A stretch of 64,000 bases of DNA from Thermoanaerobaculia bacterium (GTDB taxonomy: Bacteria; Acidobacteriota; Thermoanaerobaculia; Gp7-AA8). The DNA lies in NCBI GenBank assembly GCA_035276475.1, contig DATELQ010000037.1, positions 2,482 to 66,481 of the forward strand, read 5' to 3'. The position numbers were made by a program, and so were the translations under genes. The notes below the pieces were generated by a model. That model saw only the letters and a list, made by a program, of their open reading frames with translations, had not been told where the DNA came from and did no database searches. Shown piece by piece: positions 1,757-20,224 of the stretch (position 1 is its first letter; every line of letters starts with the position of its first letter).

Positions 1757-3766
1757 TTACTTGAAATGCGTCTCGATCCAATCGATCCAGCGGCGATAGA
1801 CGTCGGCGTTGCGGACCGGATCGCCCGGGAAGTGCCCGCCGACCGGGTAGGCGACGAACTTCGTCTCCACGCCGTTGTCCTTGAGCGCGTGGTACATCTC
1901 GAACGACTGCGTGGCCGGCACGCGCGTGTCGCCGGTGTCGGTGAGGATCAGCGTCGGCGTCTTGATGGCGTGCGCGTAGGTGATCGGCGACTGCTCCATC
2001 CACGCCTTCGCGGTCTTGGGGTTGTACGGCGAGCCTTCGAGCGAGTAGCGCACGGTGACGTTGTTGTCGGACAAGACGTACTCGTGCACGAGGTTGTTGA
2101 CGGCCGCGCCGGAGACGGCGGCGCGGAACGGGCCGTAGTGGCCGATGAGCCACGACGTCATGTAGCCGCCGTACGACCAGCCGGAGACGGCGATGCGGCT
2201 CTCGTCGATGAAGCCGCGCTTCTCGAGCATGGCCACGCCGGCCATGACGTCGCGGCCCGGCCCGGCGCCAGCGTCGTTGTAGATGGCGCGCTGGTAGGCG
2301 TTGCCGAGGTTGTCGCTGCCGCGGTAATTCGGGGAGAAGACGATCCAGCCGCGCGCGGCGAGGAGCTGCGAGAAGAGGCTGAAGGAGCGGATCGACGCCG
2401 CTTGCGGACCGCCGTGGATGCTGAGCACGAGCGGGTACTTCTTCGCTGGATCGAAGTCGGGCGGATAGACGACGATGCCGTCCTCGTCGAAGCCGTCGTT
2501 CTTCCACGTCACACGCTCGACTTTTCCAAGCTCCAGCGTGCCGACCCAGTCGTTGAACGAGGTGAGGCGGCGCGGCTTCGCGTCGGCGGAGCTCATGTAG
2601 TACAGCTCGCGGGCGCGATACGGCTCGCTGCCGGTGAAGGCGATCGCGCCGTCACGGCCGACGTTCATGTCCACCCAGTACGACCACGACGGATTGATGT
2701 CGCCCAAGTCGAGCTTGCGCGCGGCGCCGCCGCCGGCGGGCTGCAGCCAGAGCGCGGTCTGGTCTTTGTCGTGGCCGCCGACGAGGAGCGTCTTGCTGTC
2801 GGGCATCCAAAGCTGGCGGAAGAAGCTGCGGTCGATGCCGCGCGTGGCGTCGACGCTGTCGCCGCCGGAGGCTTGGGCGACGTAGATGTCGTTGACTGCG
2901 GCGCCGTCGCCGTCGCGGTAGTACCAGTACGCGACCTGTTTGCCGTCGGGCGAGAACTGCGGCGTGAACTCGAACTTCGTCTTCTTCGTCAGCGGCCGCG
3001 ACGCGCCGGTGGCGACGTCGACGATCTGCACCGACGTCTGGTCGCTGTCGCCGTAGACCGGCGTCTCCTGCCGCGTGATGGCGATCTGCTTGCCGTCCGG
3101 TGACCACGACAGCGGCGACGGGATCGGGCCGGGCGGCTGGTAGGTCGGCAGGCTCCACGTGCCCGTCGTGATGCGCTTCGCGTTCGCGCCGTCCGCGTCG
3201 ATGGTCCACAGATGCGTCGGGAGCGGGTACTCCTGCGCGAGGAAGTCGAGGTTGCCGACCTCGAACGCGTCCTCGTGCTTGGCGCGGTCCTTCTTCTGCG
3301 GCTTCTCGTCCGAGGCCGCGTAGGCGAAGGCGTTGCCGTCGGGGCGCCAGGCGAAGTGCGACACCCCCATCGGCGCGCTCGTGACGCGGCGCGCGTCGCC
3401 GCCGTCCATCGGCATGATCCAGATCTGCGGCATCGATTCCTTTTTCTCGCCGGTCGGCGCTTCGTCGAGAAAGGCCAGGCGGTCACCGCTCGGCGACCAG
3501 CGCGGCGAGTTGACGTGGCGCCGCTCGAAGGTCAGCACGCGCTGCCTTCCGCTGGCGACGTCGACGAGGACAAGCTCGCTCTCGGAGCGGTTCTCCGCGA
3601 CGTTCGGCCGCGAGACGATGCAGACGATCGACTTTCCGTCCGGCGAGAGCTGCGGGTCGGAGACGCTGACGGAGCGGAAGAGATCGTCGAGGGAGACGCG
3701 CGGCTTCTGCTGCGCCGACGCGAGCGAGGCGAAGGCCAGGAGGGCGACGAGTTTGATTGTCCGCAT
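1757..3766 (-). CDS. S9 family serine peptidase (prolyl oligopeptidase / dipeptidyl aminopeptidase type) with N-terminal TolB-like beta-propeller, secreted
   Basis: 669 aa; signal peptide; propeller repeats; catalytic nucleophile motif GWSYGGYM; C-terminal Asp/His region (GDTD, GGHF). Confidence 0.9.
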   Translation of the reverse strand: MRTIKLVALLAFASLASAQQKPRVSLDDLFRSVSVSDPQLSPDGKSIVCIVSRPNVAENRSESELVLVDVASGRQRVLTFERRHVNSPRWSPSGDRLAFLDEAPTGEKKESMPQIWIMPMDGGDARRVTSAPMGVSHFAWRPDGNAFAYAASDEKPQKKDRAKHEDAFEVGNLDFLAQEYPLPTHLWTIDADGANAKRITTGTWSLPTYQPPGPIPSPLSWSPDGKQIAITRQETPVYGDSDQTSVQIVDVATGASRPLTKKTKFEFTPQFSPDGKQVAYWYYRDGDGAAVNDIYVAQASGGDSVDATRGIDRSFFRQLWMPDSKTLLVGGHDKDQTALWLQPAGGGAARKLDLGDINPSWSYWVDMNVGRDGAIAFTGSEPYRARELYYMSSADAKPRRLTSFNDWVGTLELGKVERVTWKNDGFDEDGIVVYPPDFDPAKKYPLVLSIHGGPQAASIRSFSLFSQLLAARGWIVFSPNYRGSDNLGNAYQRAIYNDAGAGPGRDVMAGVAMLEKRGFIDESRIAVSGWSYGGYMTSWLIGHYGPFRAAVSGAAVNNLVHEYVLSDNNVTVRYSLEGSPYNPKTAKAWMEQSPITYAHAIKTPTLILTDTGDTRVPATQSFEMYHALKDNGVETKFVAYPVGGHFPGDPVRNADVYRRWIDWIETHFK

Positions 3767-4235: not shown

Positions 4236-4721
4236 ATGCGCGCCGCCGTCTATCCGGGCTCGTTCGATCCGCTGACGAACGGTCATCTCGACATCATCCG
4301 CCGCTGCTCGCGCCTCTTCGACCGCGTCATGGTGGCGCTGTTGGAGAACGAAGGAAAGTCTCCCCTCTTCACCATCCCCGAGCGCATCGAACTGATCGCT
4401 CGCTGCACCGCGGAGATGCCCAACGTCGAGGTGCATTCCTTCTCCGGCCTCCTCGTCGACTTCATGCGCCGCCACGACGCCACCGTCGTCGTGCGCGGCA
4501 TCCGGGCCGTGTCGGACTACGAGTACGAGCTGCAGATGGCGCTCATGAACCGCGAGCTCAACGCGCAGGTGGAGACGATCTTCATGCTTCCCGCGGTGGA
4601 GTACACGTACGTCTCCTCTCGCTTGATCAAAGAGGTCTTCCGCCTCGGCGGCGACGTCGGGCGTCTCGTCCCCGCACCGGTCCTCGAGTCGCTCAAGGCG
4701 CGGCTGCCGGTGACGGTCTAG
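4236..4721 (+). CDS. coaD: phosphopantetheine adenylyltransferase
   Basis: 161 aa beginning MRAAVYPGSFDPLTNGHLDII (T/HxGH nucleotidyltransferase motif); the longer track ORF 3333-4721 is an upstream read-through. Confidence 0.9.
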   Translation: MRAAVYPGSFDPLTNGHLDIIRRCSRLFDRVMVALLENEGKSPLFTIPERIELIARCTAEMPNVEVHSFSGLLVDFMRRHDATVVVRGIRAVSDYEYELQMALMNRELNAQVETIFMLPAVEYTYVSSRLIKEVFRLGGDVGRLVPAPVLESLKARLPVTV

Positions 4722-5584
4722 TCGCTGCGCGGATCCATGGCGTCGCGGAAGCGGTCGCCGATGATGTTGAAGGCGGCGACGGTGAGGAAGATGGCGACAC
4801 CGGGAAAGACCGCCAGCCACCACGCGTACTGGATGTGCTCCTCGGCGATCGAGAGGATGCTTCCCCACGACGCCGTCGGGATGGGAACGCCGAAGCCGAG
4901 GAACGAGAGCGCCGACTCGAACAGAATCGCCGAGGCCACGCCGAAGCTCGAGGAGACCAGCACCGGGGCGAGCGCGTTCGGGAGGAGATGCCGGAAGATC
5001 ACGCGCGCGTCGCGGGCGCCGATGGCGCGCGCGGCGTGGGCGAAGTCGAGGTCGCGGATGCGCAGGAGCTCCCCGCGCACGTAGCGCGCCTCCGTGGTCC
5101 ACGACGTCAGCCCCAGCGCGATCATGATCGTGTAGAGCGACGGCTTGAAGAGCGCCACGATGCCGAGGACGAGAAAGAGGAACGGGAAGCAGAGCAGGGT
5201 CTCGATGAGGCGGGAGACGATCCAGTCGGCCGCGCCGCCGTAGTAGCCGGCCAGCGCGCCGAGAATCGAGCCAACGATGAGCGAGATCGCCGTCGCCGTG
5301 AAGCCGACCGTGAGCGAGACCCGCGCGCCGTGGATCATACGCGCCAGCACGTCGCGCCCGAGGTCGTCGGTGCCGAAGCGGTGCTGTGCGGTCGGAGCCT
5401 CGAGGCGGTGCGCGAGGTCGACGTCGTTCGGCCCGAACGGCACCGGCGCCGAGGGCCCGGCGAGGAGCGGCGCAAAGAGCGCGATGACGGCCATCAGCAC
5501 GACGAAGACGAGCGCGATGACGGCCAGCTTGCTCCGGCGGAAGCGCAGCCAGGTCAGACCCCAGATCGACTCCCCTACCCTCAT
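4718..5584 (-). CDS. oligopeptide/dipeptide ABC transporter permease (DppC/OppC type)
   Basis: Start placed at internal MRVGESIWGLTW (residue 91 of track ORF), giving an ATGA overlap with the upstream permease; 6-TM permease with conserved EAA-like region. Confidence 0.85.
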   Translation of the reverse strand: MRVGESIWGLTWLRFRRSKLAVIALVFVVLMAVIALFAPLLAGPSAPVPFGPNDVDLAHRLEAPTAQHRFGTDDLGRDVLARMIHGARVSLTVGFTATAISLIVGSILGALAGYYGGAADWIVSRLIETLLCFPFLFLVLGIVALFKPSLYTIMIALGLTSWTTEARYVRGELLRIRDLDFAHAARAIGARDARVIFRHLLPNALAPVLVSSSFGVASAILFESALSFLGFGVPIPTASWGSILSIAEEHIQYAWWLAVFPGVAIFLTVAAFNIIGDRFRDAMDPRSD

Positions 5585-6561
5585 CGGGTGGCCTCGAGGC
5601 GGATGCGCGGGTCGGCGAACGCGTAGAGGATGTCGGCGAAGAGCGAGGCGAAGAGGGTGATGACCGCCGTCGTCACCGTGAGGCCGAGGATCATCGGGTA
5701 GTCGCGCTGCGACATCGAGTCGAAGTAGAGCCGGCCGATGCCGTCCCACTGAAAGATCGTCTCGACGATGACGCTGCCGGAGATGAGGTACGGAATCGTC
5801 AAACCGAGGAGCGTGATCAGCGGGATCAGCGCATTGCGGAATGCGTGACGCCACATGACCGCCGCTGGCGCCGCCCCCTTCGCGCGCGCCGTGGTGATGA
5901 AGTCCTGGCGGATCACCTCAATGAGCGCCGACTTCGAGTAGCGCGCGAAGATGGCCATCTGCGCGTACGTCAGCGTGACGACCGGAAGGATGAGATGGCG
6001 CACGCGGTCGAGGAGCTGCTGCGCCGCGTTCATCTGCAGATAGTCGTCCGAGGTCATGCCGAAGAGCGGGAGGACATTGAGCTTCACGGAGAAGAACTGC
6101 ATCAGCAGCAGGGCCACCCAGAAGCTCGGCAGCGAATAGAGAAGGAAGAAGCCGACGGCGGAGGCGCGCTCGGACAGGCGCCCCGAGCGCGTCGCGCTCC
6201 AGAGGCCGATCGGCACGCCGAGCATCGCGGCGATGAGGAACGCGATGAGGTTCAGGACGAAGGTATTCGGCATCTTCTCGGCGATGTGGGCCATGACGGG
6301 CTGCTCGTCGATGATCGACTTGCCGAAGTCGAGGGTGACGACGCCCTTCACCCACCACGCGTACTGCGCGACGATGGGCTGGTCGAGGTGATGCTCGTGG
6401 CGGATGTGCTGGACGATTGCGGCGGGCGGCCGTCCCTTGGGGCTCAGGAACAACAAGGTCGGATCGCCGGGCACGGCGTGGATGAGGGCGAACACCGCGA
6501 CCGTGATGCCGAAGAAGGTCAGCACCCCGTAGGCGCAACGGCGGATCAGGTACGAGAGCAC
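5581..6561 (-). CDS. oligopeptide/dipeptide ABC transporter permease (DppB/OppB type)
   Basis: 326 aa; MLSYLIRRCAYGVLTFFGITVAVFALIHAVPGDP is the canonical OppB/DppB N-terminus. Confidence 0.85.
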   Translation of the reverse strand: MLSYLIRRCAYGVLTFFGITVAVFALIHAVPGDPTLLFLSPKGRPPAAIVQHIRHEHHLDQPIVAQYAWWVKGVVTLDFGKSIIDEQPVMAHIAEKMPNTFVLNLIAFLIAAMLGVPIGLWSATRSGRLSERASAVGFFLLYSLPSFWVALLLMQFFSVKLNVLPLFGMTSDDYLQMNAAQQLLDRVRHLILPVVTLTYAQMAIFARYSKSALIEVIRQDFITTARAKGAAPAAVMWRHAFRNALIPLITLLGLTIPYLISGSVIVETIFQWDGIGRLYFDSMSQRDYPMILGLTVTTAVITLFASLFADILYAFADPRIRLEATR

Positions 6562-6565
6562 TGCG

Positions 6566-8215
6566 TCATTTCACGTTCTGAAACCGCTTCGGAATCCACC
6601 ACCCCAGCTCGCCCGGGTACCACAGGTTCAGCCCCCACCCCTTGCTCTCGTTCACGTTGCGCAGGCGCTTGTTGACGGCCCACTTCGACGAGACCTGCAG
6701 CGTCCAGGTGTACGGCTGGTCGTTGGCCAGCACCTCGTGCAGCTTGCGCATGATGGGGATGCGTTTCTTGAGGTCGAGCTGGGTCCGCTCCGCGTCCATC
6801 AACTTGTCGGCCTCGGGATTCGAATAGAAGACGATGTTCTGGCTCTGCGGCGCGAACTGCGAGGAGTGAAAGAGCGTGAACGGATCGGGATCGGGATCGA
6901 CGTCCCAGGCCAGCTGCGCGGCCTCGAAGTTCCCGCCGAGGACTCGCTGCATGAAGGCGCTCGTGTCGAGCGGAACGATGTTCATCTGCACGCCGATCTT
7001 CTTGAGCTCCGCCTGCAGCAGCTGCCCGAACGGACTCGAGACGGCGTTGCCGCCGGGGATCAGCATGTCGAACTTGAACGGCTTGCCGTTCTTGTCGAGG
7101 ATGCCGTCCTTGTCGCTGTCAGTCCATCCGAGGGAGTTGAGGATGCGCTGGGCCTCGAGGGGGTTGTACTGGATGACCGGGACGTCGGGGTTGTAGGCCC
7201 ACTCGTCCGGCGTGAAGGGGCCGTTCATGGCCCGGGCCGTGCCGTGATAGAGGTTGTTGATCACCGACTGCAGGTCGATGCACATGGACATGGCCCGGCG
7301 CACGCGGCGGTCGCCGAAGATGGGGTGGCGGTTGTTCCAGGGGATGAAGTTGTAGGTCAGCGTGTAGAAGCGGCGGAAGTCGATGGTCTTCTGCAGCTCG
7401 GGGCGGCGGCTCTCCATGAGCCAGACGTCAGAGCTGATCTGGGCCTCGTCGACGTCGCCGCGCTGCACGGCCTGCCAGGCGGTCTTGTCGTCGTTGATGA
7501 CCTTGAAGAGGATCGTGTCGATCCAGACCGGCGGGCCCCACCAGTCCTTGCGCCGCTGCAGGACGATCTCCTTCCCCGGCACGCGGCGGACGAGCGTGTA
7601 CGGCCCGGAGCCGATGGCGCGGTCGACCCAGCCGCCGCGGAAGTCGCCCTGACTGTAGACGTGCTCCGGCAGAGGGAGGACGTTGTTGAACTGGGTGAGC
7701 TGCGACGCCAGGGTCTCCTTGAACCCGACGACGATGGTGTGGTCGTCCAGGACTTTGGTGGTGGCGAGGTCGAGCTTGTCGAAGCCGCCGGCGATCTGCG
7801 CGGCCTCGCTGGCGGGATCGACGATTTTCTTGAGCGTGAAGAGGACGTCGCTCGCCTTGATGGGCGTGCCGTCGGAGAACGTCGCCTTCGGGTTGAGGTG
7901 GAAGGTGTAGAGCCTGCCGTCGGGCGAGATCTCCCACTTGTCCGCGAGGCCGGGAATCGGCTGGAGGTTGACGTCGAGATGGACGATGGGGGTGTAGAGG
8001 TAGTAGGCGATGAGGCGGTCGTACTTCGTCGCCGAGACGATGGGGTTGAGCGTGCTGACGTCGCCGGAGAGGCGGCGCAGGACCGTGCCGCCGGCCACCG
8101 GTACGGTGTCATCCTCCACCGCCGTTTGCACCGGCGGCAGCGCAGTCTCTCTCTTGCACGTGGCCGCGCAGAGAGCGAGCAGAAGAACAGCAAGGAGGGT
8201 GCGGGAACTGTTCAC
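6566..8215 (-). CDS. ABC transporter substrate-binding protein, family 5 (OppA/DppA type)
   Basis: Start moved to in-frame GTG (VNSSRTLLAVLLLALCAATC, signal/lipoprotein-like) because the upstream 21 codons of the track ORF are encoded by the heptamer hairpin; SBP_bac_5-like body. Confidence 0.8.
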   Translation of the reverse strand: MNSSRTLLAVLLLALCAATCKRETALPPVQTAVEDDTVPVAGGTVLRRLSGDVSTLNPIVSATKYDRLIAYYLYTPIVHLDVNLQPIPGLADKWEISPDGRLYTFHLNPKATFSDGTPIKASDVLFTLKKIVDPASEAAQIAGGFDKLDLATTKVLDDHTIVVGFKETLASQLTQFNNVLPLPEHVYSQGDFRGGWVDRAIGSGPYTLVRRVPGKEIVLQRRKDWWGPPVWIDTILFKVINDDKTAWQAVQRGDVDEAQISSDVWLMESRRPELQKTIDFRRFYTLTYNFIPWNNRHPIFGDRRVRRAMSMCIDLQSVINNLYHGTARAMNGPFTPDEWAYNPDVPVIQYNPLEAQRILNSLGWTDSDKDGILDKNGKPFKFDMLIPGGNAVSSPFGQLLQAELKKIGVQMNIVPLDTSAFMQRVLGGNFEAAQLAWDVDPDPDPFTLFHSSQFAPQSQNIVFYSNPEADKLMDAERTQLDLKKRIPIMRKLHEVLANDQPYTWTLQVSSKWAVNKRLRNVNESKGWGLNLWYPGELGWWIPKRFQNVK

Positions 8216-8230
8216 GCCGCCATTATAGGC

Positions 8231-8301
8231 AGTGCTGAGTGCTGAGTGCCGAGTGCTGAGTTGGGAGGTACTCAGCACTCAGAACACAGCACTCAGCACT
8301 C
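8231..8301. repeat. perfect stem-loop made of heptamer tandem repeats (4 x AGTGCTG, loop, 4 x CAGCACT)
   Basis: agtgctgagtgctgagtgccgagtgctgag-ttgggaggt-actcagcactcagaacacagcactcagcact lying directly 3' of the propeller gene stop and 5' of the SBP gene start on the minus strand. Confidence 0.85.
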
Positions 8302-8303
8302 TT

Positions 8304-10460
8304 CTACGGCAGGGTGATGGACTCGGTCGAGACGTTGTAGTACGCGTCGGTCGCGCGAACAATTACAAATTTTCCGGCGATGGCGCTGCGCGTCAGCCGG
8401 TAGCTCTCATCCGGCGAGTCGGCGATGCCGTCGACCGGCGTGAGGCGGATCCACTTCTGCGCGTCGATGGAGTACTCGACCTTGCCGATCGGCGAGAGCT
8501 TGTCGGTCACGCGGATGACGACGTCGCTGCCGCTCACGTTCGAAACGATCTGCGGCGGGGTGTTGTCGACCAGGAACTCGATCCCTTCCTTCGTATCCGT
8601 CAGCGCCCCCTCGGCGTTGTCCTGCGCGTCGGTGACGGAGAGGCGCAGCTCGTACACGCCGTCGGGGAGCTGCGAGGTGTCGAAGTTCATCGACGTCTCG
8701 TCGAGGTTGTCGCGCAGGCGCAGCCAGTTGTCCGTCCCCTTGCGGCGGAACGAGAGCGAGTAGCGCAGCGAGTCGTTGTTCTCGTCGTGCGCGCGCCACG
8801 TCACGGTGCGGTAGCCCTTGCGGTAGACCTTCTTCCCCGGCTCGTTCTTGTCGTGCGCCGGCTCGAGGCTGGTGAAGATGCCGTATTCGTCGGGGTTCGT
8901 GGCCTCGACGACGTTGGGCGACTGCGGGTAGCTGCCGGTGATGTAGACGACGGCCGGCTCCTGCACGGCGACGTTGTCGATGACCGGGGCGACGTTGCGG
9001 TTGAGGAAGGAGATGGTGACGGTGTCGACGGCGATGTCGGGCGCGGGATTCGGCATGGTGAGCTTCCACTGCACGTACCGCCCCGCCGGCGCCTGAATCG
9101 ACCCCTCGGACGCCGCCGTCGAGGCGCTCCACGGACTCCACGTGGCGTCGGGCGTGCGCGTGTTGCCGCTGCGGAAGGCGATGGCGAGGTGGCCGTTGTC
9201 GACGTCGCTGCCGTCGATGCGGTAGTGGCCGAAGCGCGAGAAGCGGTCGACGTCCTTCGCCGCGGAGCGGAACTCCGCCTTCGCCGACGGCGCGCTTTCC
9301 ATGCGATAGATCGCACCGCTGTTGGTCGTCGTGATCAAGCCGTCCGAGGAGATCGAGACGACCTGCTTCTCCGGCACGGTGGCGATGAGCGACACCTCGG
9401 TGCCTTTCATCGAATAGACGCGTCCCTGCGGGCCGCTCGACAGCAGGATCGTGCCGTTCGGGCCGCCGCTGATGGCGTAGACCATCTCGCGGTCGAACTT
9501 GCGCACGGTCTGCACGAAGCCGTCGGGATCGATGCGGTAGATCTCGCCGCTGCCGCCACTCGTCACGGCCGCGGCGGCGGAGTCGTCGAACGAGTACGAA
9601 ACCTCGACCGAGGCGGTGGGCTCGTCTTTCTTCGGCTCGGCGCCGGTGGCCGTCGCGGACGTGCTCGTGCCCGAGGGCTGCGGCGTCTTCTGCTGCGGCT
9701 TGGGCGCGCTGGACGGCAGCACGTTGCTCGCCGCCGAGGCCCAGCCGGTGCCGTTCGCATCGACGTAGATCGCGGAGATCTCGCTCAGCGGCGAGTCGAA
9801 GAGCGCGTGGGCGCTGCCGTCCGGACGCACTTCGTAGATCCGGCCCTTGCCCGAGCCGCCGGCGAGGATCGAGCCGTCTTTGCGCACGGCGAGCGAGCGC
9901 AGGTGCGTGTCGGGCGCGTCGAAGAAGACCTTCCCCTCCCCGTTCGCGGCGACGCGGAAGAGCTTTCCTTCGACGCCGGTGGCGGCGAGGAGGTCGTTGC
10001 CGCTGAAGGCGAGGGCCCAGATGTAAGCCTGCTTCGGATCGAAGACGACGGTGGACTTGCCGGTGTCGTCGACGCGGTAGATCTTCCCGTTCGGCGACGT
10101 GCCGGCGTAGAGAGCGCCGTCATGCCAGGCGATGGTGTAGATCTCCGGCTCCGGCGCGGTCCAGACGACTTTGAGGTCGCTGCCGCGGAGGCGATAGAGC
10201 TTGCCGTCGTTGCCGGTGCCGAAGTAGCGGTCGCCGTTCGCCGCCGTGGCCTGGGAGAGGACGAACGGATCGGTGAACGAGGCGATCTTCGTCACGCCCG
10301 GTGCCGGCCGGAGCTCTCCGCGCGAGGTGACGGCGAAGCCGTCAACCTCGCCCGCGAGGAAATCCTCGGTGCTGCGGACTCTCCAGAATTGCGGGACGAC
10401 GGCGAAGGCGGTGGACGAGAACAGTGCCACTAAAAGCGCAAGGCGAAACCGCATGCACAC
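8304..10460 (-). CDS. secreted beta-propeller repeat protein with C-terminal beta-sandwich (Ig/FN3-like) region
   Basis: 718 aa; signal peptide; about 7 repeats of G(K/R/E)(L/I)(Y/F)R(V/L/I/M) blade motif; 3-nt gap to S55 peptidase gene. Confidence 0.6.
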   Translation of the reverse strand: MCMRFRLALLVALFSSTAFAVVPQFWRVRSTEDFLAGEVDGFAVTSRGELRPAPGVTKIASFTDPFVLSQATAANGDRYFGTGNDGKLYRLRGSDLKVVWTAPEPEIYTIAWHDGALYAGTSPNGKIYRVDDTGKSTVVFDPKQAYIWALAFSGNDLLAATGVEGKLFRVAANGEGKVFFDAPDTHLRSLAVRKDGSILAGGSGKGRIYEVRPDGSAHALFDSPLSEISAIYVDANGTGWASAASNVLPSSAPKPQQKTPQPSGTSTSATATGAEPKKDEPTASVEVSYSFDDSAAAAVTSGGSGEIYRIDPDGFVQTVRKFDREMVYAISGGPNGTILLSSGPQGRVYSMKGTEVSLIATVPEKQVVSISSDGLITTTNSGAIYRMESAPSAKAEFRSAAKDVDRFSRFGHYRIDGSDVDNGHLAIAFRSGNTRTPDATWSPWSASTAASEGSIQAPAGRYVQWKLTMPNPAPDIAVDTVTISFLNRNVAPVIDNVAVQEPAVVYITGSYPQSPNVVEATNPDEYGIFTSLEPAHDKNEPGKKVYRKGYRTVTWRAHDENNDSLRYSLSFRRKGTDNWLRLRDNLDETSMNFDTSQLPDGVYELRLSVTDAQDNAEGALTDTKEGIEFLVDNTPPQIVSNVSGSDVVIRVTDKLSPIGKVEYSIDAQKWIRLTPVDGIADSPDESYRLTRSAIAGKFVIVRATDAYYNVSTESITLP

Positions 10461-10463
10461 CCT

Positions 10464-12356
10464 TTAAATTGTCGGTTTGATATCGATGTCGATCTTCAGC
10501 GCGCCGTCGACGATGTAGCCGAGGGGACGCGCCTGCTTGGCGGCGGGATGGTACTTCACCGCGGCCTGCGCGCCGTTCGTCGTGTCGGCCGCCACCACGG
10601 CGCGCATGGTCGGCGGAAGGTCCGGCAAATAGACGCCGCTCATCACGGCGCCGTCCGATTGCGAGTAGAGGCCGAGGGTCAGGTCGGTCGACGGGCGGAG
10701 CCGCTGCAGCACCGCCAGCACCTGCTCGAGCGTGCGCGGGTCGGGCGGCACGAGCGAGAAGTCGATCTGGTTCATCAGCGACCCGCTGCCGACGAGGAGG
10801 TAGGCCTGCCCGGGCGGCTGGTTGTCCGGGATCTTCACGTCGAACGTCTCCGTGAAGGCCTCGCCGCGGAACGGCTTGAGGAGCGTGCGCACTTTGACGG
10901 TGTCGCCCGCGGTGAACCGTCCCTTCGCCGGCGAGTCGATCGACGCCTCCAGAAGCTTGGCGATCTTGAGGCCGTCGTCGTGGCGGAGGTGGAGCTTCAC
11001 GCTCTCGATGTCGGCCTGGCGGAACTCGTTCGACATCAGGTACCCGGCCACGATGGCCAGGTACTGCGGAATGGCCTGCCGCGCCTGCGCCCCCGCCCAC
11101 CCTTCGTGCAGGACGATCGGCTGGTCGAAGCCTTTGAGCTTGATCTCCGACTCGAGCATGACCGTGCGCTCGCCGGCGGCGCGCTGGGCGTTGGCGACGA
11201 CGCTGTCGGCGGCCATGGCCAGGATCAGCGGCGAGAGCTGCGTGTGCCGCACGATGTTGACGTGGTAGTTCTTGGCCGGGCCGCCCCCCTCGACCGCGAG
11301 GTCGATCGGGATCATGTCGGCGCTCGCGCCGACCGTGCCCATGATGCCGTTGGCGCGGTCCTGCTTGAACGCGCCGACGATCGCGCCGGTGTTGGCGAAC
11401 TTGAACGAGCTCGCCAGCGAGGGCATGACCGTGATGATCTCCGACTTCGCCATCGGGAAGCTCACTTCACCCATGTCGAGGAACGGGTGGCCGAAGGCGT
11501 AGATCTCGTTGCCGTCGACGACGGTGACGGTGCCGGTGGCGGCAACGTTGAAGTCGCCGTTGAGAAGGACGGCGCCGACAGGGTCGCCGGGCTTGAATTG
11601 CGAAGTGTCCGCTTTCGTCGTCGTTGTCGACGTCGAGGTCGAGCCGCTCGGCACGGCCACGAAGCCCATGGCGTCGAGCCACGGCGCGAAGCGGCTGACG
11701 GTCTCGGGCGCGAAGCTCGACAGCGACAGCGGCACGGCGATCGGCTTCGCGCCGCTCATCGTGCTCGCCGGCGCCGCGCCCGCCAGGCCGTTCTGCATCT
11801 TGGCGAAGAGCTCGTCGGTTTTGTGCTCGGTGATGGCTTTGAGGAAGTCGCCCGCACTCATCCGCGCCGCGGTCACCGCGGCGCTGCTCCCGCCGCCGGA
11901 CTCGGCGATCTTCAGCATCTGCGCGATCGGGGTGATGCCCGCCACCGGCTCCTTGGCGAACTGCCACGAGTACGCGAGCGCGCCGATGACCTTGCCGTCG
12001 ATGTAGACCGGCGAGCCGCTCATGCCGGCGATGACGCCGGCGCGCTGCACGACCGGCGAGTCGACTTTGGCGAGGATCAGGTCCTGCCCGGGGCCGATGT
12101 TGTTCAGCACGCCGAGGATCTCGACGTCGAAGCGGTCGAGGCGCGTCCCCTCGAAGACCGTCACGCCGTAGCCCTTCATCCCTTTATGGATCTGGGAAAG
12201 CGGCATGGTCGACTGCGCCGTAGCGGAAAAGGCGAACAGAGCCGCGACGGCGGCGAGAAGGAGAATTTTGGGTGTGCGCACGACGGGTCTAACTGTACTC
12301 CTCCCCGGCGCTATTTCGCGTTCTGTGCCCGGTGAATCACTCGTAACGAAGCGCAT
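10464..12356 (-). CDS. SpoIVB-like peptidase S55 domain protein, secreted
   Basis: 630 aa; signal peptide; serine-protease motif AGVIAGMSGSPVYIDGKVIGA matching the S55 (SpoIVB) catalytic-Ser context; start may be internal (20-nt overlap with upstream permease). Confidence 0.65.
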   Translation of the reverse strand: MRFVTSDSPGTEREIAPGRSTVRPVVRTPKILLLAAVAALFAFSATAQSTMPLSQIHKGMKGYGVTVFEGTRLDRFDVEILGVLNNIGPGQDLILAKVDSPVVQRAGVIAGMSGSPVYIDGKVIGALAYSWQFAKEPVAGITPIAQMLKIAESGGGSSAAVTAARMSAGDFLKAITEHKTDELFAKMQNGLAGAAPASTMSGAKPIAVPLSLSSFAPETVSRFAPWLDAMGFVAVPSGSTSTSTTTTKADTSQFKPGDPVGAVLLNGDFNVAATGTVTVVDGNEIYAFGHPFLDMGEVSFPMAKSEIITVMPSLASSFKFANTGAIVGAFKQDRANGIMGTVGASADMIPIDLAVEGGGPAKNYHVNIVRHTQLSPLILAMAADSVVANAQRAAGERTVMLESEIKLKGFDQPIVLHEGWAGAQARQAIPQYLAIVAGYLMSNEFRQADIESVKLHLRHDDGLKIAKLLEASIDSPAKGRFTAGDTVKVRTLLKPFRGEAFTETFDVKIPDNQPPGQAYLLVGSGSLMNQIDFSLVPPDPRTLEQVLAVLQRLRPSTDLTLGLYSQSDGAVMSGVYLPDLPPTMRAVVAADTTNGAQAAVKYHPAAKQARPLGYIVDGALKIDIDIKPTI

Positions 12357-14262: not shown

Positions 14263-15482
14263 GTCTTGGTCTCCTTCGCCGGCTCCTTCGTCGCTTCGAC
14301 GTGCGCGCCGTCCTTGAGACTCTTCAGGATCCGAAATGGTCCGGTGACGATCTTGTCGCCCGCTTTGACGCCGCTCGTGATGGCTACGTTGGTCGCGTCG
14401 CTGATCCCCGTCGCCACCTCGGTCATCTTGGCCACGCCGTCCTTCACCACGAATACGTATTTTTTCTTCGGCGCGTTCTCGTCGACCGTGTCGGTCTTCT
14501 TCGCTCCGGCCACCGGCGGCACGCGCTCGACGACGGCCTGGATCGGCACCGCCACCGCGCTCGGCGCGGAGAGCGTCGTGATCGACACCTGCGCGGTCAT
14601 GCCGGGGCGGAGACGGTCGTCGGCGTTCTCGATTGCGGACTTCACCTTGAAGTAGCGCATCCCCGAGCCGGCGCTGGCGCGCTGCGTAGCCGAGCTGCCG
14701 ATCTCCACGACGCGGCCGACGTAGTCCTTGTCCGGCACGGCGTCGACTTTGATCTTCGCCGGCTGCCCGAGCTTGATTCCGACGACTTCAGTCTCGCCCA
14801 CGTCCGCCTCGGCGAGGATCTCCGCCAGGTCGGCAATCACCGCAATCACCGACGCAGGATTGTTCATCGTCCCGGTGACGACGACTTCGCCCTCGTGGGC
14901 GTTGAGCTGCACGACCTTCCCGTCGATCGGCGAGACGATCGTTGTGTGCGACAGGTCGGTCTGCGACGACGTCAGGAGGGCCACGGCCTGCCGGACCCCT
15001 TCCTGCGCCGAGGCGTAGCCGGCGCGGGCGTTCTCGATGTCGAGCTTGGCCTTTTCGAAGATCTCCTGCGCCTGGATCCCCTGCGTCTGCATGTTCACGG
15101 CGCGTTTGTACGCGAGGTCGGCCGTCGCCAGCGCCACGCGCGCGCGCTCGACCTCGATCTTTCGGTTCTGCACCTCGGCCTGGGCGCGCTGGTACTGCGC
15201 TTCGTAGGCCGGGCGCTCCAGATCGATGAGCTTCTGGTTGCGGCGCACCATGTCGCCCTCTTTGATGTAGAGGCGCTCGATCTTGCCGACGATGTGCGCG
15301 CTGATGTTGACCTTGAGACTCGGGTTGATCTCCGCGGGCGCCGTGACGACCGACTCGATCTTCTTCGTCTTCACCGTGTCGATGTAGACCTGCTCGGCGT
15401 TCGACGAGGTCGATTTGATGCTGAAGAGGACGATGACGGCGACGACGATGACGGCGCCGCCGATGATCAGCGTCCGCTTCAC
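14259..15482 (-). CDS. efflux periplasmic adaptor subunit (MacA/HlyD family)
   Basis: 407 aa; N-terminal TM, coiled-coil and beta-barrel/lipoyl pattern; ATGA overlaps with both neighbours. Confidence 0.85.
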
Positions 15483-16222
15483 TTAGCCCTCATCTTCGCC
15501 ATCGCTCCCCCGCCCAAGGCAAAGAGAGTCCCGATGCACCACACCACGAACACGACCGCTGCGGTCTTCGCCTTCGACAGGCGCGAGGACGCCGACAGTC
15601 CGATCACCACCAGGATGAGCGTCCAGAGGAGGAAGAGGTCGAAGCGCTGCAAGACCGCCCACAGCATCGGATTGGCCTTGAAGCTCGTAAGGAACGCGGG
15701 ACTCGATCGGACGATCGTCTCCACCTCCTGCGGGGCGATGGAGTTCTTCGTCAGGACGATCGGAATGCGCACGAGCATCCGTATGGCCAGCGGCATCCAC
15801 GAGTAGAGCACGACGGAGAAGACCTGCGCATACGTCGCTACGCCGCCGAGCATCTTCGTGCCGACCCAGTAGAGGAGCGCGGCCACGGCGATGAAGCCGA
15901 TGATGAAGATCGGGCTGAGATACTGCGCGCCCTTCGCGAAGGCGAGGCCGATCCTCATGGCCTGATCCGCCTGCGGCCCCGAAACGCCCTTTGCGTCCAT
16001 GGCCTCGCGCATCTGGGATTCGAAGTCCAGACGCGGCACCGTCACGATCACCGCGGCGAAGGCGACGAGCACGATGACAATCGCCGGCACGACCCAGTCA
16101 GGCTTCCGGGCGATCTCCGCGAAGGTCTGACCGGGCGAAAAGAGCACGCCGATGATGCGGCTGAACGAGCTGGAGGGCTTTTCGCTGGGCGGCGCTTCGA
16201 CCGCCGGGCTGACGTCCGTCAT
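15479..16222 (-). CDS. Yip1-domain integral membrane protein
   Basis: Start set at internal MTDVSPA, giving an ATGA overlap with TolC stop; 5 predicted TM helices in Yip1-like arrangement. Confidence 0.6.
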   Translation of the reverse strand: MTDVSPAVEAPPSEKPSSSFSRIIGVLFSPGQTFAEIARKPDWVVPAIVIVLVAFAAVIVTVPRLDFESQMREAMDAKGVSGPQADQAMRIGLAFAKGAQYLSPIFIIGFIAVAALLYWVGTKMLGGVATYAQVFSVVLYSWMPLAIRMLVRIPIVLTKNSIAPQEVETIVRSSPAFLTSFKANPMLWAVLQRFDLFLLWTLILVVIGLSASSRLSKAKTAAVVFVVWCIGTLFALGGGAMAKMRAK

Positions 16223-17928
16223 TTCTTCTTCTCCTCGGTGTTGGACTGCTGTTTTTCGTAGTTCAGCCAACTATACCGGTCGAAGAAAGTAAAGAGACGG
16301 GGTTCCTGCACGGTTTCCTGATCCACCTTGATGTTGCGGACGTCGAGGAGGTCGCCGACGGCGCGGTGGTACGCGGAGACGGCCTTGTTGTAGGCGACGA
16401 GGGCCTGGAGCTCGCGGGCGCGGGAGTCGGAGAGCTGCTGCTGGATCTGCAGGACCTGGAAGATCGTGGTCATGCCGTTCTCGTAGCGCTTCCGCTCCGC
16501 GTCGAGGTTCTGCTCCGCGGCCTCGCGCGCCGTCTTCGTGGCCGTGATCTCCTTCGCCGCCGTGTCGGTGGCGCGGGCGGTATTGCGGACTTCGAGGGCG
16601 ATGTTCTGCCGGGTCTGGTCGGTCAGGATGCGCGTGCGGTCGACTTCGAGCTCCGCGCGCTTGGCCTCGGCGCGCGCGCCGATGTTCAGCACCGGCACGC
16701 CGACGAGGAAGCCGACGGTCCACGACGGAAAGTTGTTGCCGAGGACCTGGCCGACGGCGTGCGGCAGCCCGGTGCTGTCGAAGCCGATGACCTGGTTGGT
16801 GACGGGATCGACGATCGGGGCGCGGCCGCCGAGGCCGGCGGCGGTGTAGTTGACGATGGCGTCGAGCTTCGGCCGGACCTGGTTGCGCGCGTAGGTGTAC
16901 TGCACCTGCGCGTTAGAGGTGGTGAGCTGCGACTCGCGCAGCTCGGGCCGGAGGTCGAACGCGCGCGCCAGGGAGTCCTGGACGTTGATCGTCATCGGCG
17001 TGTACGTGACCGTGTCGGTCGGCACGATCGGCCGGTCCCATTCCTCCTGCGGGAGGTTGAGCAGCGCGCGGATCTGGTCCTCGGCGTCGCGCACCGACGC
17101 GATGGCGGCGATGAGCGACTCCTCGGTCGTGGCGATCTGCACTCGCGGCTGGAGGATGTCGAGCGGCGCCGAGGCGCCGACGTTGATGCGGATCTGGGTG
17201 ATGCGGGCCTGGTCGCGGGCCAGGAAGAGCGCTTCCTTCTGCACGTCGACGAAGCGCCGCGCGTAGACGAGGTCGAGGTAGGCCTGCTCGGTGGTGACGA
17301 CGGTGTTGATCAGGATGCGCCGGAACTCCTCGGAGTTGATGCCGAAGGTATTCCGCGCGATGGTGATCTGCCGGCGGTTGATGTCCATGCCGAAGTTGCG
17401 CAGCAACGGCTGCTGCAACCCGAGCGAGAGCGAGGAGCCGAACGCCGGCGACACCGTGGTGAAGCCGCCCGTCTGCACGAGGCGGTTGTTGTCGACGAAG
17501 ACGGAGTACGTGCCGCCGGTCGGCAGGAGCTGCGACACGCCGAGGTTGACGAACGTGTTGCGGCTTGCCGATGCCGTCGCCTGCGACGAGACCGGGCTCT
17601 CCTTGCTCGAGTGCTCGATGTCAGCGGTCGTGAACCAGTCGAACGGCCCGTAGGCCTCGCGCAGGCTCTGGCCGGACTCGCGCCAGTCGTAGCGCTGCAC
17701 CTGCACGCCGAGGTTCTGCCCCACGGCCGTGCGGATGGCCTCGTCGAGCGAGAGCTTCAGCGCCCGCGGGTTGCTGACGTCCTTGTCCGTCTCGGCCGTC
17801 ACCGGCGACGTGTAGGTCTCTTCTTTCTGTTCCTGCTGCGTAGTCGTCGTCCCTGGCGTCTGGGCGATGAGCGCAGTCGCGCTCAGCGCAAAACAGGCGG
17901 AGATCAGGACACGGCGGATTTGCGACAT
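16219..17928 (-). CDS. TolC-family outer membrane efflux protein
   Basis: Start set at MSQIRRVLISACFALSATALIAQ (signal peptide), preceded by GGAGGAATCCGC-ATG Shine-Dalgarno; two outer-membrane-efflux repeats. Confidence 0.85.
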   Translation of the reverse strand: MSQIRRVLISACFALSATALIAQTPGTTTTQQEQKEETYTSPVTAETDKDVSNPRALKLSLDEAIRTAVGQNLGVQVQRYDWRESGQSLREAYGPFDWFTTADIEHSSKESPVSSQATASASRNTFVNLGVSQLLPTGGTYSVFVDNNRLVQTGGFTTVSPAFGSSLSLGLQQPLLRNFGMDINRRQITIARNTFGINSEEFRRILINTVVTTEQAYLDLVYARRFVDVQKEALFLARDQARITQIRINVGASAPLDILQPRVQIATTEESLIAAIASVRDAEDQIRALLNLPQEEWDRPIVPTDTVTYTPMTINVQDSLARAFDLRPELRESQLTTSNAQVQYTYARNQVRPKLDAIVNYTAAGLGGRAPIVDPVTNQVIGFDSTGLPHAVGQVLGNNFPSWTVGFLVGVPVLNIGARAEAKRAELEVDRTRILTDQTRQNIALEVRNTARATDTAAKEITATKTAREAAEQNLDAERKRYENGMTTIFQVLQIQQQLSDSRARELQALVAYNKAVSAYHRAVGDLLDVRNIKVDQETVQEPRLFTFFDRYSWLNYEKQQSNTEEKKK

Positions 17929-17978
17929 GCGGATTCCTCCTAAGACTCGCCTCATGTACGAAGTTCTGTTTGGATTGT

Positions 17979-20224
<2,246 letters not shown>

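Follow-up and report, generated by a model that had tools for sequence, protein, structure and literature searches.

Two neighbouring open reading frames (ORFs) on the minus strand of a 64,000-nt stretch of DNA from a Thermoanaerobaculia bacterium (contig DATELQ010000037.1; the whole stretch is called the window below), at 10464..12356 (630 aa) and 8304..10460 (718 aa), encode a predicted serine protease and a beta-propeller protein. Judged from its sequence, the protease is an exported homologue of the PA-clan peptidase family S55, but it is not a SpoIVB: its catalytic domain reads as a circular permutant of the S55 domain in which the two beta-barrels are swapped relative to SpoIVB. An earlier note on this DNA had described both ORFs as they stand, with a signal peptide on each product, and had called the first a SpoIVB-type S55 peptidase. 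Residue numbers throughout are those of the 630-aa ORF, and all coordinates are those of the window.

Homology to S55 and the order of the two barrels

The motif GVIAGMSGSPVYIDGKVIGALAY (ORF residues 107-129, window 11970-12038 (-)) had been read in the earlier note as the catalytic-serine context of family S55, and profile searches bore this out. The native protein matched Pfam PF05580 (Peptidase_S55) with 40 bits (E 5.8e-10), above the gathering cutoff of 25. Its best match by sequence and by structure was the homologous protease domain of Bacillus subtilis SpoIVB (MEROPS S55), the solved structure of which (9lnf) was matched by the protein at E 2.5e-6, with Ser113 on SpoIVB Ser378 (the S378A position in 9lnf), and by the profile of the protease family at E 3.2e-11. 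The catalytic Ser113 (codon 12018-12020 (-)) lies inside the invariant motif GMSGSP. SpoIVB and the protease thus share the GMSG(S/A)P serine motif, a histidine (His290 on His236) and export. Of the 210 positions of the PF05580 profile only 116-201, which make up the Ser half, are matched by the native protein, and the matching residues 54-140 come immediately behind the signal peptide. The Ser-bearing barrel aligned with the SpoIVB family at an hhalign probability of 98.6.

The term SpoIVB-type did not survive. On the SpoIVB equivalog model TIGR02860 the protein reached 31.8 bits, where the cutoff is 305.25. A PDZ family (PF17820, PF00595 or PF13180) is present in true SpoIVB homologues, whereas no PDZ domain was present among the Pfam matches of the protease, which has an insert of about 110 residues between its barrels and a C-terminal extension of about 260 residues for which no sequence match was found in Pfam or the Protein Data Bank (PDB). 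The catalytic order is His...Ser in SpoIVB and Ser...His...Asp here. SpoIVB proper is the sigma-K checkpoint protease of sporulation, and the host here is of another kind. The closest labelled relatives of the protease are metagenome-assembled genomes (MAGs) of Thermoanaerobaculia/Acidobacteriota, a phylum that is not known to form endospores, and the window holds a gene for a TolC-type OEP, in keeping with the non-sporulating, TolC-bearing diderm that the earlier note had proposed. The neighbouring genes are those of TolC, MacAB and Opp, with no sigma-K checkpoint context. Because collinearity, the PDZ domain, the equivalog score and the sporulation context all fail, the protein is not a SpoIVB, though it would be expected to work like an S55/PA-clan protease.

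The catalytic residues run Ser...His...Asp along the chain, and since the histidine comes about 175 residues after the serine this is the reverse of the SpoIVB order. Permutation of the two S55 barrels would account for this order, because the Ser half matches right after the signal peptide and the His/Asp half follows some 175 residues further on. When the His block (residues 251-355) was moved in front of the Ser block (residues 51-150), PF05580 matched with 50.8 bits (E 2.9e-13) over profile positions 14-201 in one stretch. The same blocks joined in native order gave 44 bits in two separate stretches, and the Ser block alone gave 36.8 bits over positions 118-201. In five controls the Ser block was combined with the reversed His block, with two shuffled versions or with two unrelated segments; these scored 34.5-35.7 bits and started at profile positions 116-117. 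The re-ordering extended the Pfam match N-terminally in 10/10 diverse members of the family, in three to profile positions 13-15 and in seven to positions 74-78.

The rival reading is that the protein is not permuted: a single Ser barrel would be homologous to S55, the His region would be unrelated, and the match would arise from barrel self-similarity together with an artefact of greedy alignment. The Pfam results argue against it, in that both the gain of 14-15 bits and the reach to profile position 14 required the true His block ahead of the Ser block. Profile-profile alignment points the same way. The reference was an 81-sequence alignment of the SpoIVB family (SpoIVB plus 80 homologues, the SpoIVB sequence having been checked against 9lnf). 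With hhalign, 67 columns aligned to this family in native order and 112 in un-permuted order. In greedy mode the un-permuted profile aligned in one collinear piece of 182 columns, which reaches from position 3 to position 209 of the SpoIVB domain (224 positions), and scored 108.0, whereas 100 controls with shuffled His-block columns scored 96.0 +/- 1.4 (maximum 104.8; z of the un-permuted order about 8.6). Alignment to SpoIVB had been proposed in the earlier note as the way to locate the triad; the un-permuted alignment pairs His290 with His236, Ser113 with Ser378, GTVT with GTMT, QDRxxGIxG with NRNxxGIFG and Asp333 with Asn290, and sets Asp268 beside Asp213. Placement of histidine on histidine and of the two motifs on their counterparts is not readily explained by an unrelated His region.

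Some of the results weigh against a permutation. In 7/10 distant members the re-ordered match stopped at profile position 75 or so, short of the His region. The His block alone had no Pfam match, and a HMMER sub-profile search against SpoIVB plus 5,000 shuffled decoys gave it 10 bits, the same as the decoys, so that by HMMER it has no significant match of its own. By hhalign the block alone was marginal (20.2 versus 12.4 +/- 2.5, maximum 21.3), with His290 on His236, and it also aligned weakly to the C-terminal barrel of SpoIVB (24.4), a cross-barrel similarity that the non-permuted reading would predict. Against that reading, the Ser, His and Asp residues are invariant, and the catalytic motif is kept without exception, although a Ser barrel on its own could have no protease activity. 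We consider the absence of a permutation very unlikely and retain the circular permutation of the S55 domain as the explanation of the chain order.

Catalytic residues and the structural model

Conservation was scored over 466 members of the family. Ser113 was present in 465/465 members, His290 (codon 11487-11489 (-)) in 466/466, Asp333 (codon 11358-11360 (-)) in 464/466 and Asp268 (codon 11553-11555 (-)) in 465/466. The earlier note had made its assignment depend on a conserved His and Asp, and both residues are kept. Among 87 representatives at about 30% identity the near-invariant elements were G-x-S-G-S-P (Ser113), G-D (Asp268), T-x-T, G-H (His290) and a few glycines. The family positions that match SpoIVB Asp363 and Thr393 are variable. 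In SpoIVB itself, His236 and Ser378 are the secure catalytic residues; Asp363 lies about 24 Å from His236, and Thr393 has been proposed in its place (PMC12502668). The position equivalent to Asp102 of chymotrypsin is occupied by the invariant Asp333 in the present family and by Asn290 in the SpoIVB family.

Given its invariant Ser, His and Asp, the protein is predicted to be a catalytically competent protease. A dead pseudoprotease, serving only as a binding or scaffold module, seems most improbable. Inactive PA-clan homologues such as MamO do exist, and the third catalytic residue of SpoIVB is disputed (PMC12502668), but at about 30% identity each of Ser113, His290 and Asp333 is kept in 464 or more of the 466 members, and the first two lie inside the GMSGSP and GH motifs. 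Pseudoenzymes normally lose their catalytic residues.

A structural model was obtained with AlphaFold2 (AF2). A first run, which used an alignment of homologues of at least 70% identity only, gave a mean predicted local distance difference test score (pLDDT) of 55.8 and was unusable. The second run used a diverse, profile-derived alignment of 144 sequences and reached pLDDT 84.5 with a predicted template-modelling score (pTM) of 0.83. In this model six strands lie at residues 61-143, with Ser113 between strands 3 and 4, and residues 259-369 form six or more strands, the third of which is followed by His290 and the fifth by Asp333. In the chymotrypsin topology those strand positions are the canonical sites of Ser195, His57 and Asp102. 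If the two barrels pack in the chymotrypsin manner, Ser113, His290 and Asp333 would meet at the barrel interface as a classical triad; this predicted geometry follows from strand topology and not from distances in the coordinates, which counts as a further reservation.

Foldseek matched the model to 9lnf with a probability of 0.99. The structural matches span only about 90-120 residues, or about one barrel. A full-length Foldseek search of the PDB gave nothing at E <= 1e-3, with high probability only for half-domain protease matches, and a search of the BFVD viral library gave only the same half-domain matches, to viral proteases. The nearest structural relatives of the model were regulatory or quality-control proteases, with MamO among those listed.

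The protease gene, its propeller partner and their neighbours

The two gene starts differ from the longest ORFs (Table 1). The protease most likely starts at GTG 12281 (V26) and has 605 aa, including a classical signal peptide, because its homologues begin at the V26 position and GGGAGGAG lies upstream of this GTG. Read directly, the signal peptide has the layout RTPK / ILLLAAVAALFAF / SATAQS, a plausible Sec signal. Note that public calls of the protease (580 aa, P0001/P0002; L081 6001-7743) start at Met51 and leave the conserved signal peptide out (window 12204-12281 (-)); therefore these automated calls cut the signal peptide off, and the protein would be misplaced in the cytoplasm. The propeller protein most likely starts at ATG 10454 and has 716 aa; AAGGG lies 5 nt upstream, and the same 716 aa are called in a public contig of 99% identity. 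Its signal peptide reads MRFR / LALLVALF / SSTAFA, again a plausible Sec signal. With this start the gap between the protease and propeller genes would be 9 nt in place of the 3 nt given in the earlier note.

Table 1 Features of the protease-propeller locus and of neighbouring genes in the window.
Feature	Coordinates	Strand	Remarks
S55-type protease gene, permuted	10464..12281	(-)	605 aa from GTG 12281; longest ORF extends to ATG 12356
Protease Sec signal peptide	12210..12281	(-)	Residues 26-49, VRTPKILLLAAVAALFAFSATAQS; read from sequence; hydrophobic N-terminus in homologues too
Ser-bearing beta-barrel	11922..12206	(-)	Residues 51-145; corresponds to C-terminal barrel of SpoIVB/chymotrypsin; Pfam profile 116-201
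Variable alpha/beta insert and Ser/Thr-rich linker between barrels	11592..11921	(-)	Residues 146-255; about 110 residues; low-pLDDT stretches, gapped alignments
His/Asp-bearing beta-barrel	11247..11591	(-)	Residues 256-370; corresponds to N-terminal barrel of SpoIVB; re-ordered Pfam match, hhalign, AF2 strands
C-terminal region of about 260 residues (alpha/beta and beta-rich domains)	10467..11246	(-)	Full-length in family; AF2 pLDDT mostly 85-95
Propeller and Ig-like partner gene	8304..10454	(-)	716 aa from ATG 10454; longest ORF from 10460
Propeller signal peptide	10401..10454	(-)	MRFRLALLVALFSSTAFA; read from sequence
Beta-propeller region	9255..10382	(-)	Residues about 25-400; 7 clear blade repeats, possibly 8; blade hidden Markov model (HMM)
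C-terminal beta-sandwich (Ig-like/FN3-like)	8307..9254	(-)	Residues about 401-716
Oligopeptide importer genes, downstream	4718..8278	(-)	SBP_bac_5 6566-8278, OppB-like 5581-6561, OppC-like 4718-5854; Pfam
TolC-type OEP gene	16219-18042	(-)	In minus-strand block

The partner protein is indeed a propeller, as the earlier note had said: a profile of 30 partner homologues matched both designed and natural propellers of the PDB at E values from 9e-42 to 1e-20, and Pfam Reg_prop was present in 26/30 members of the partner family. The figure of exactly seven blades is less firm, since a blade HMM found seven clear repeats and a possible eighth at residues ~214-250, in a series that is broken by a Ser/Thr/Pro-rich insert. 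In the C-terminal beta-sandwich region, Big_3_3, Big_13 and fn3 matched in 5-8 of the 30 members, with weak FN3 matches in the PDB. Both proteins of the pair contain Ser/Thr/Pro-rich low-complexity linkers of variable length, at residues ~240-290 of the propeller protein (9585-9740 (-)) and ~236-255 of the protease (11592-11650 (-)); they may serve as flexible tethers or be glycosylated or processed.

To see how far the pair is kept we compared 80 loci, of which eight had too little downstream DNA, leaving 72 informative. The propeller gene lay directly downstream of the protease gene and on the same strand in 46 of these 72 species genomes, with a gap of 0-100 nt in most of the 46. The paired loci span Thermoanaerobaculia, Vicinamibacterales, Terriglobia, Blastocatellia, Aminicenantes, Latescibacterota and Zixibacteria, and the adjacency holds down to about 30% protease identity and in other phyla. 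The conserved S55-propeller pair of the earlier note is thus found across several classes and phyla but is absent from loci of the Pyrinomonadaceae/Chloracidobacterium type. The 26 informative loci without a downstream propeller gene are mainly those of Pyrinomonadaceae, Chloracidobacterium and Aridibacter, where the neighbours are unrelated, and they tell against a general partnership. In a subset of such loci (within L013-L078, for example L022 6027-6743, L066 2322-3698, L033 4435-5514, L039 9834-10499) the flanks encode a Lon-substrate-binding-domain protein, a metallophosphoesterase, a divergent alpha/beta hydrolase and an HD-domain protein.

These loci also favour a second rival, in which the adjacency is inherited gene order without functional coupling. 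No protease-propeller fusion was found among the best 150 representatives, which is likewise what inherited order would give. (Long 'fusion' ORFs in L040, L042, L044 and L049 were rejected as out-of-frame ORF over-extensions in GC-rich DNA.) We regard inherited order as unlikely all the same, given that the two genes keep the same strand and the short gap over many classes and phyla while the other neighbours change; no neighbour besides the propeller gene was broadly conserved in the 80 loci. Functional coupling of the protease and the propeller protein is therefore preferred, with the propeller as a putative substrate-binding or anchoring companion, as the earlier note had suggested and as known propeller-protease combinations would allow.

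Those combinations are the prolyl oligopeptidase/DPP-IV enzymes (S9) and Tricorn, in which a beta-propeller is likewise combined with a serine protease. Their propellers filter or channel substrates. The likeness is one of analogy only: S9 enzymes and Tricorn carry the propeller in cis, joined to an alpha/beta-hydrolase or to the Tricorn core rather than to a PA-clan domain, whereas here it is a separate polypeptide with extra Ig-like domains, and the interaction is putative.

On the minus strand the gene order is Opp ATPases, TolC-type OEP, Yip1, MacA, MacB ATPase, MacB permease, protease, propeller, SBP_bac_5, OppB and OppC. The same order is present in GCA_016307145.1, and no terminator-like site was found on the minus strand between MacB and OppC. 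A general functional link of the protease to the upstream MacAB-TolC pump was considered and rejected, as MacAB is kept upstream of the protease only in the nearest relatives.

Three further observations concern these neighbours. The Yip1-domain membrane protein (15479-16270 (-)) is encoded between OEP and macA with an overlap of a few bases with each; it is unusual in a MacAB-TolC module and is also present in GCA_016307145.1. The Opp/Dpp-type importer appears split, with its ATPases (17979-20224 (-)) upstream and its binding protein and permeases (4718-8278) downstream of the TolC-Yip1-MacAB-protease-propeller block, as if the block had been inserted. A few kb downstream of the pair, an S9 prolyl-oligopeptidase/DPP-IV-like peptidase with its own PD40 propeller (1757-3766 (-)) adds to the peptide-processing character of the region.

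Distribution, proposed role and meaning

A word-indexed search found 5,529 relatives of the protease. An exhaustive one gave 6,768 clusters at the 50% identity level, of which 2,260 had E <= 1e-30; nearly all are about 600 aa long and match over their full length. At least 589 species genomes encode the protease, and the hosts include Thermoanaerobaculia, Blastocatellia, Vicinamibacterales, Terriglobia, Aminicenantes, Zixibacteria and Latescibacterota. Two MAGs labelled Heliobacteriaceae/Heliomicrobium (L062 CAZLYK010000114.1 and L075 CAYYDG010000038.1) hold a protease-propeller pair of acidobacterial type at about 31-32% identity, which suggests mis-binning or a problem of taxonomic labels rather than presence in Firmicutes. 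Searches of PHROGs and PADLOC gave no phage or defence relationship. S55 has been listed as common in Acidobacteria in a mention from the MEROPS catalogue (PMC8841776), the sole mention of S55 outside sporulation that we found. The literature searched contained no functional or biochemical study of any family member, which leaves any assignment of function exposed.

Our preferred account, which we hold to be probable though far from certain, is that the locus encodes an active Sec-exported, permuted S55 endopeptidase with a propeller partner, and that the pair has a peptide-supplying role in this organism. The enzyme would be a serine endopeptidase of clan PA, family S55, consisting in chain order of the signal peptide, the Ser barrel, the insert of about 110 residues, the His/Asp barrel and some 260 residues of non-catalytic C-terminal domains. 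The secreted propeller/Ig protein would be its non-catalytic partner, with the task of binding, selecting or positioning substrates. Together they would break down extracytoplasmic protein to peptides for the adjoining oligopeptide importer. Breakdown of extracytoplasmic protein is favoured in this lineage because the pair adjoins that importer. The binding protein and Opp permeases follow the pair in only 14 of the 80 loci (this genome and 13 others), mainly in Thermoanaerobaculia, and therefore the nutritional role may be lineage-specific or coincidental.

The same enzyme could instead be a housekeeping protease of the envelope, acting in processing, signalling or quality control as SpoIVB, DegS, DegP and MarP do, with the propeller protein as its regulator or its substrate. 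Because of its phylum-wide distribution and its changing neighbours this stays a serious rival, although on balance we think it somewhat unlikely. Occurrence in all Acidobacteriota classes and in allied phyla at about 30% identity, with a fixed architecture of about 600 aa, suits a core function, and no second copy of the protease was found in the 64-kb window. Outside Thermoanaerobaculia neither the Opp nor the MacAB neighbours are kept, and the regulatory or quality-control character of the nearest structural relatives is also as this rival would have it. On the other hand, by Pfam the protease has neither a PDZ domain nor any other known sensor domain, the loci revealed no conserved neighbour of the membrane-protein or anti-sigma kind, and a peptide-binding protein and permeases do follow the pair here and in 13 other loci. 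HtrA, DegP, DegS, DegQ and MarP (Rv3671c), all of MEROPS S1, are likewise exported serine proteases of the envelope with the chymotrypsin fold, and are plausible functional analogues in turnover or signalling. They differ from the protease described here in their collinear His-Asp-Ser order, in having a C-terminal PDZ domain or an N-terminal membrane anchor and in having no propeller partner, and their sequence similarity to it is insignificant.

A broader proposal, which goes beyond the peptide-supplying role and which we put forward as a doubtful one, is that the protease and propeller make up a dedicated extracytoplasmic protease of two subunits, a core feature present phylum-wide in Acidobacteriota and also in neighbouring phyla. 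By analogy with the cis-fused propeller enzymes, the propeller would act in trans, as a gate for substrates or by delivering them, and the permutation might have made the termini and the insert that enabled assembly.

Public databases name these proteins 'SpoIVB peptidase S55 domain-containing', so the S55 label is already known; what the present analysis adds is the permutation and the architecture, as read from sequence. No description of a permuted PA-clan protease was found in the literature searched, and one may exist elsewhere. The label invites wrong transfer of function to sporulation signalling, whereas the proteins form a distinct and very large family, in which the architecture differs and the barrels of the catalytic domain are swapped. 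A chymotrypsin fold that nature has circularly permuted would serve studies of protein evolution and protein engineering. That the Asp102 position holds an invariant Asp here and Asn in SpoIVB may bear on the debate about the non-canonical triad of SpoIVB (PMC12502668). Acidobacteriota are major soil bacteria, and the exported protease-propeller pair is a testable candidate for extracellular protein use or envelope maintenance in them. If the two-subunit proposal is true, the pair would be a protease machine that had gone unrecognised in a phylum ranking among the most abundant in soil.

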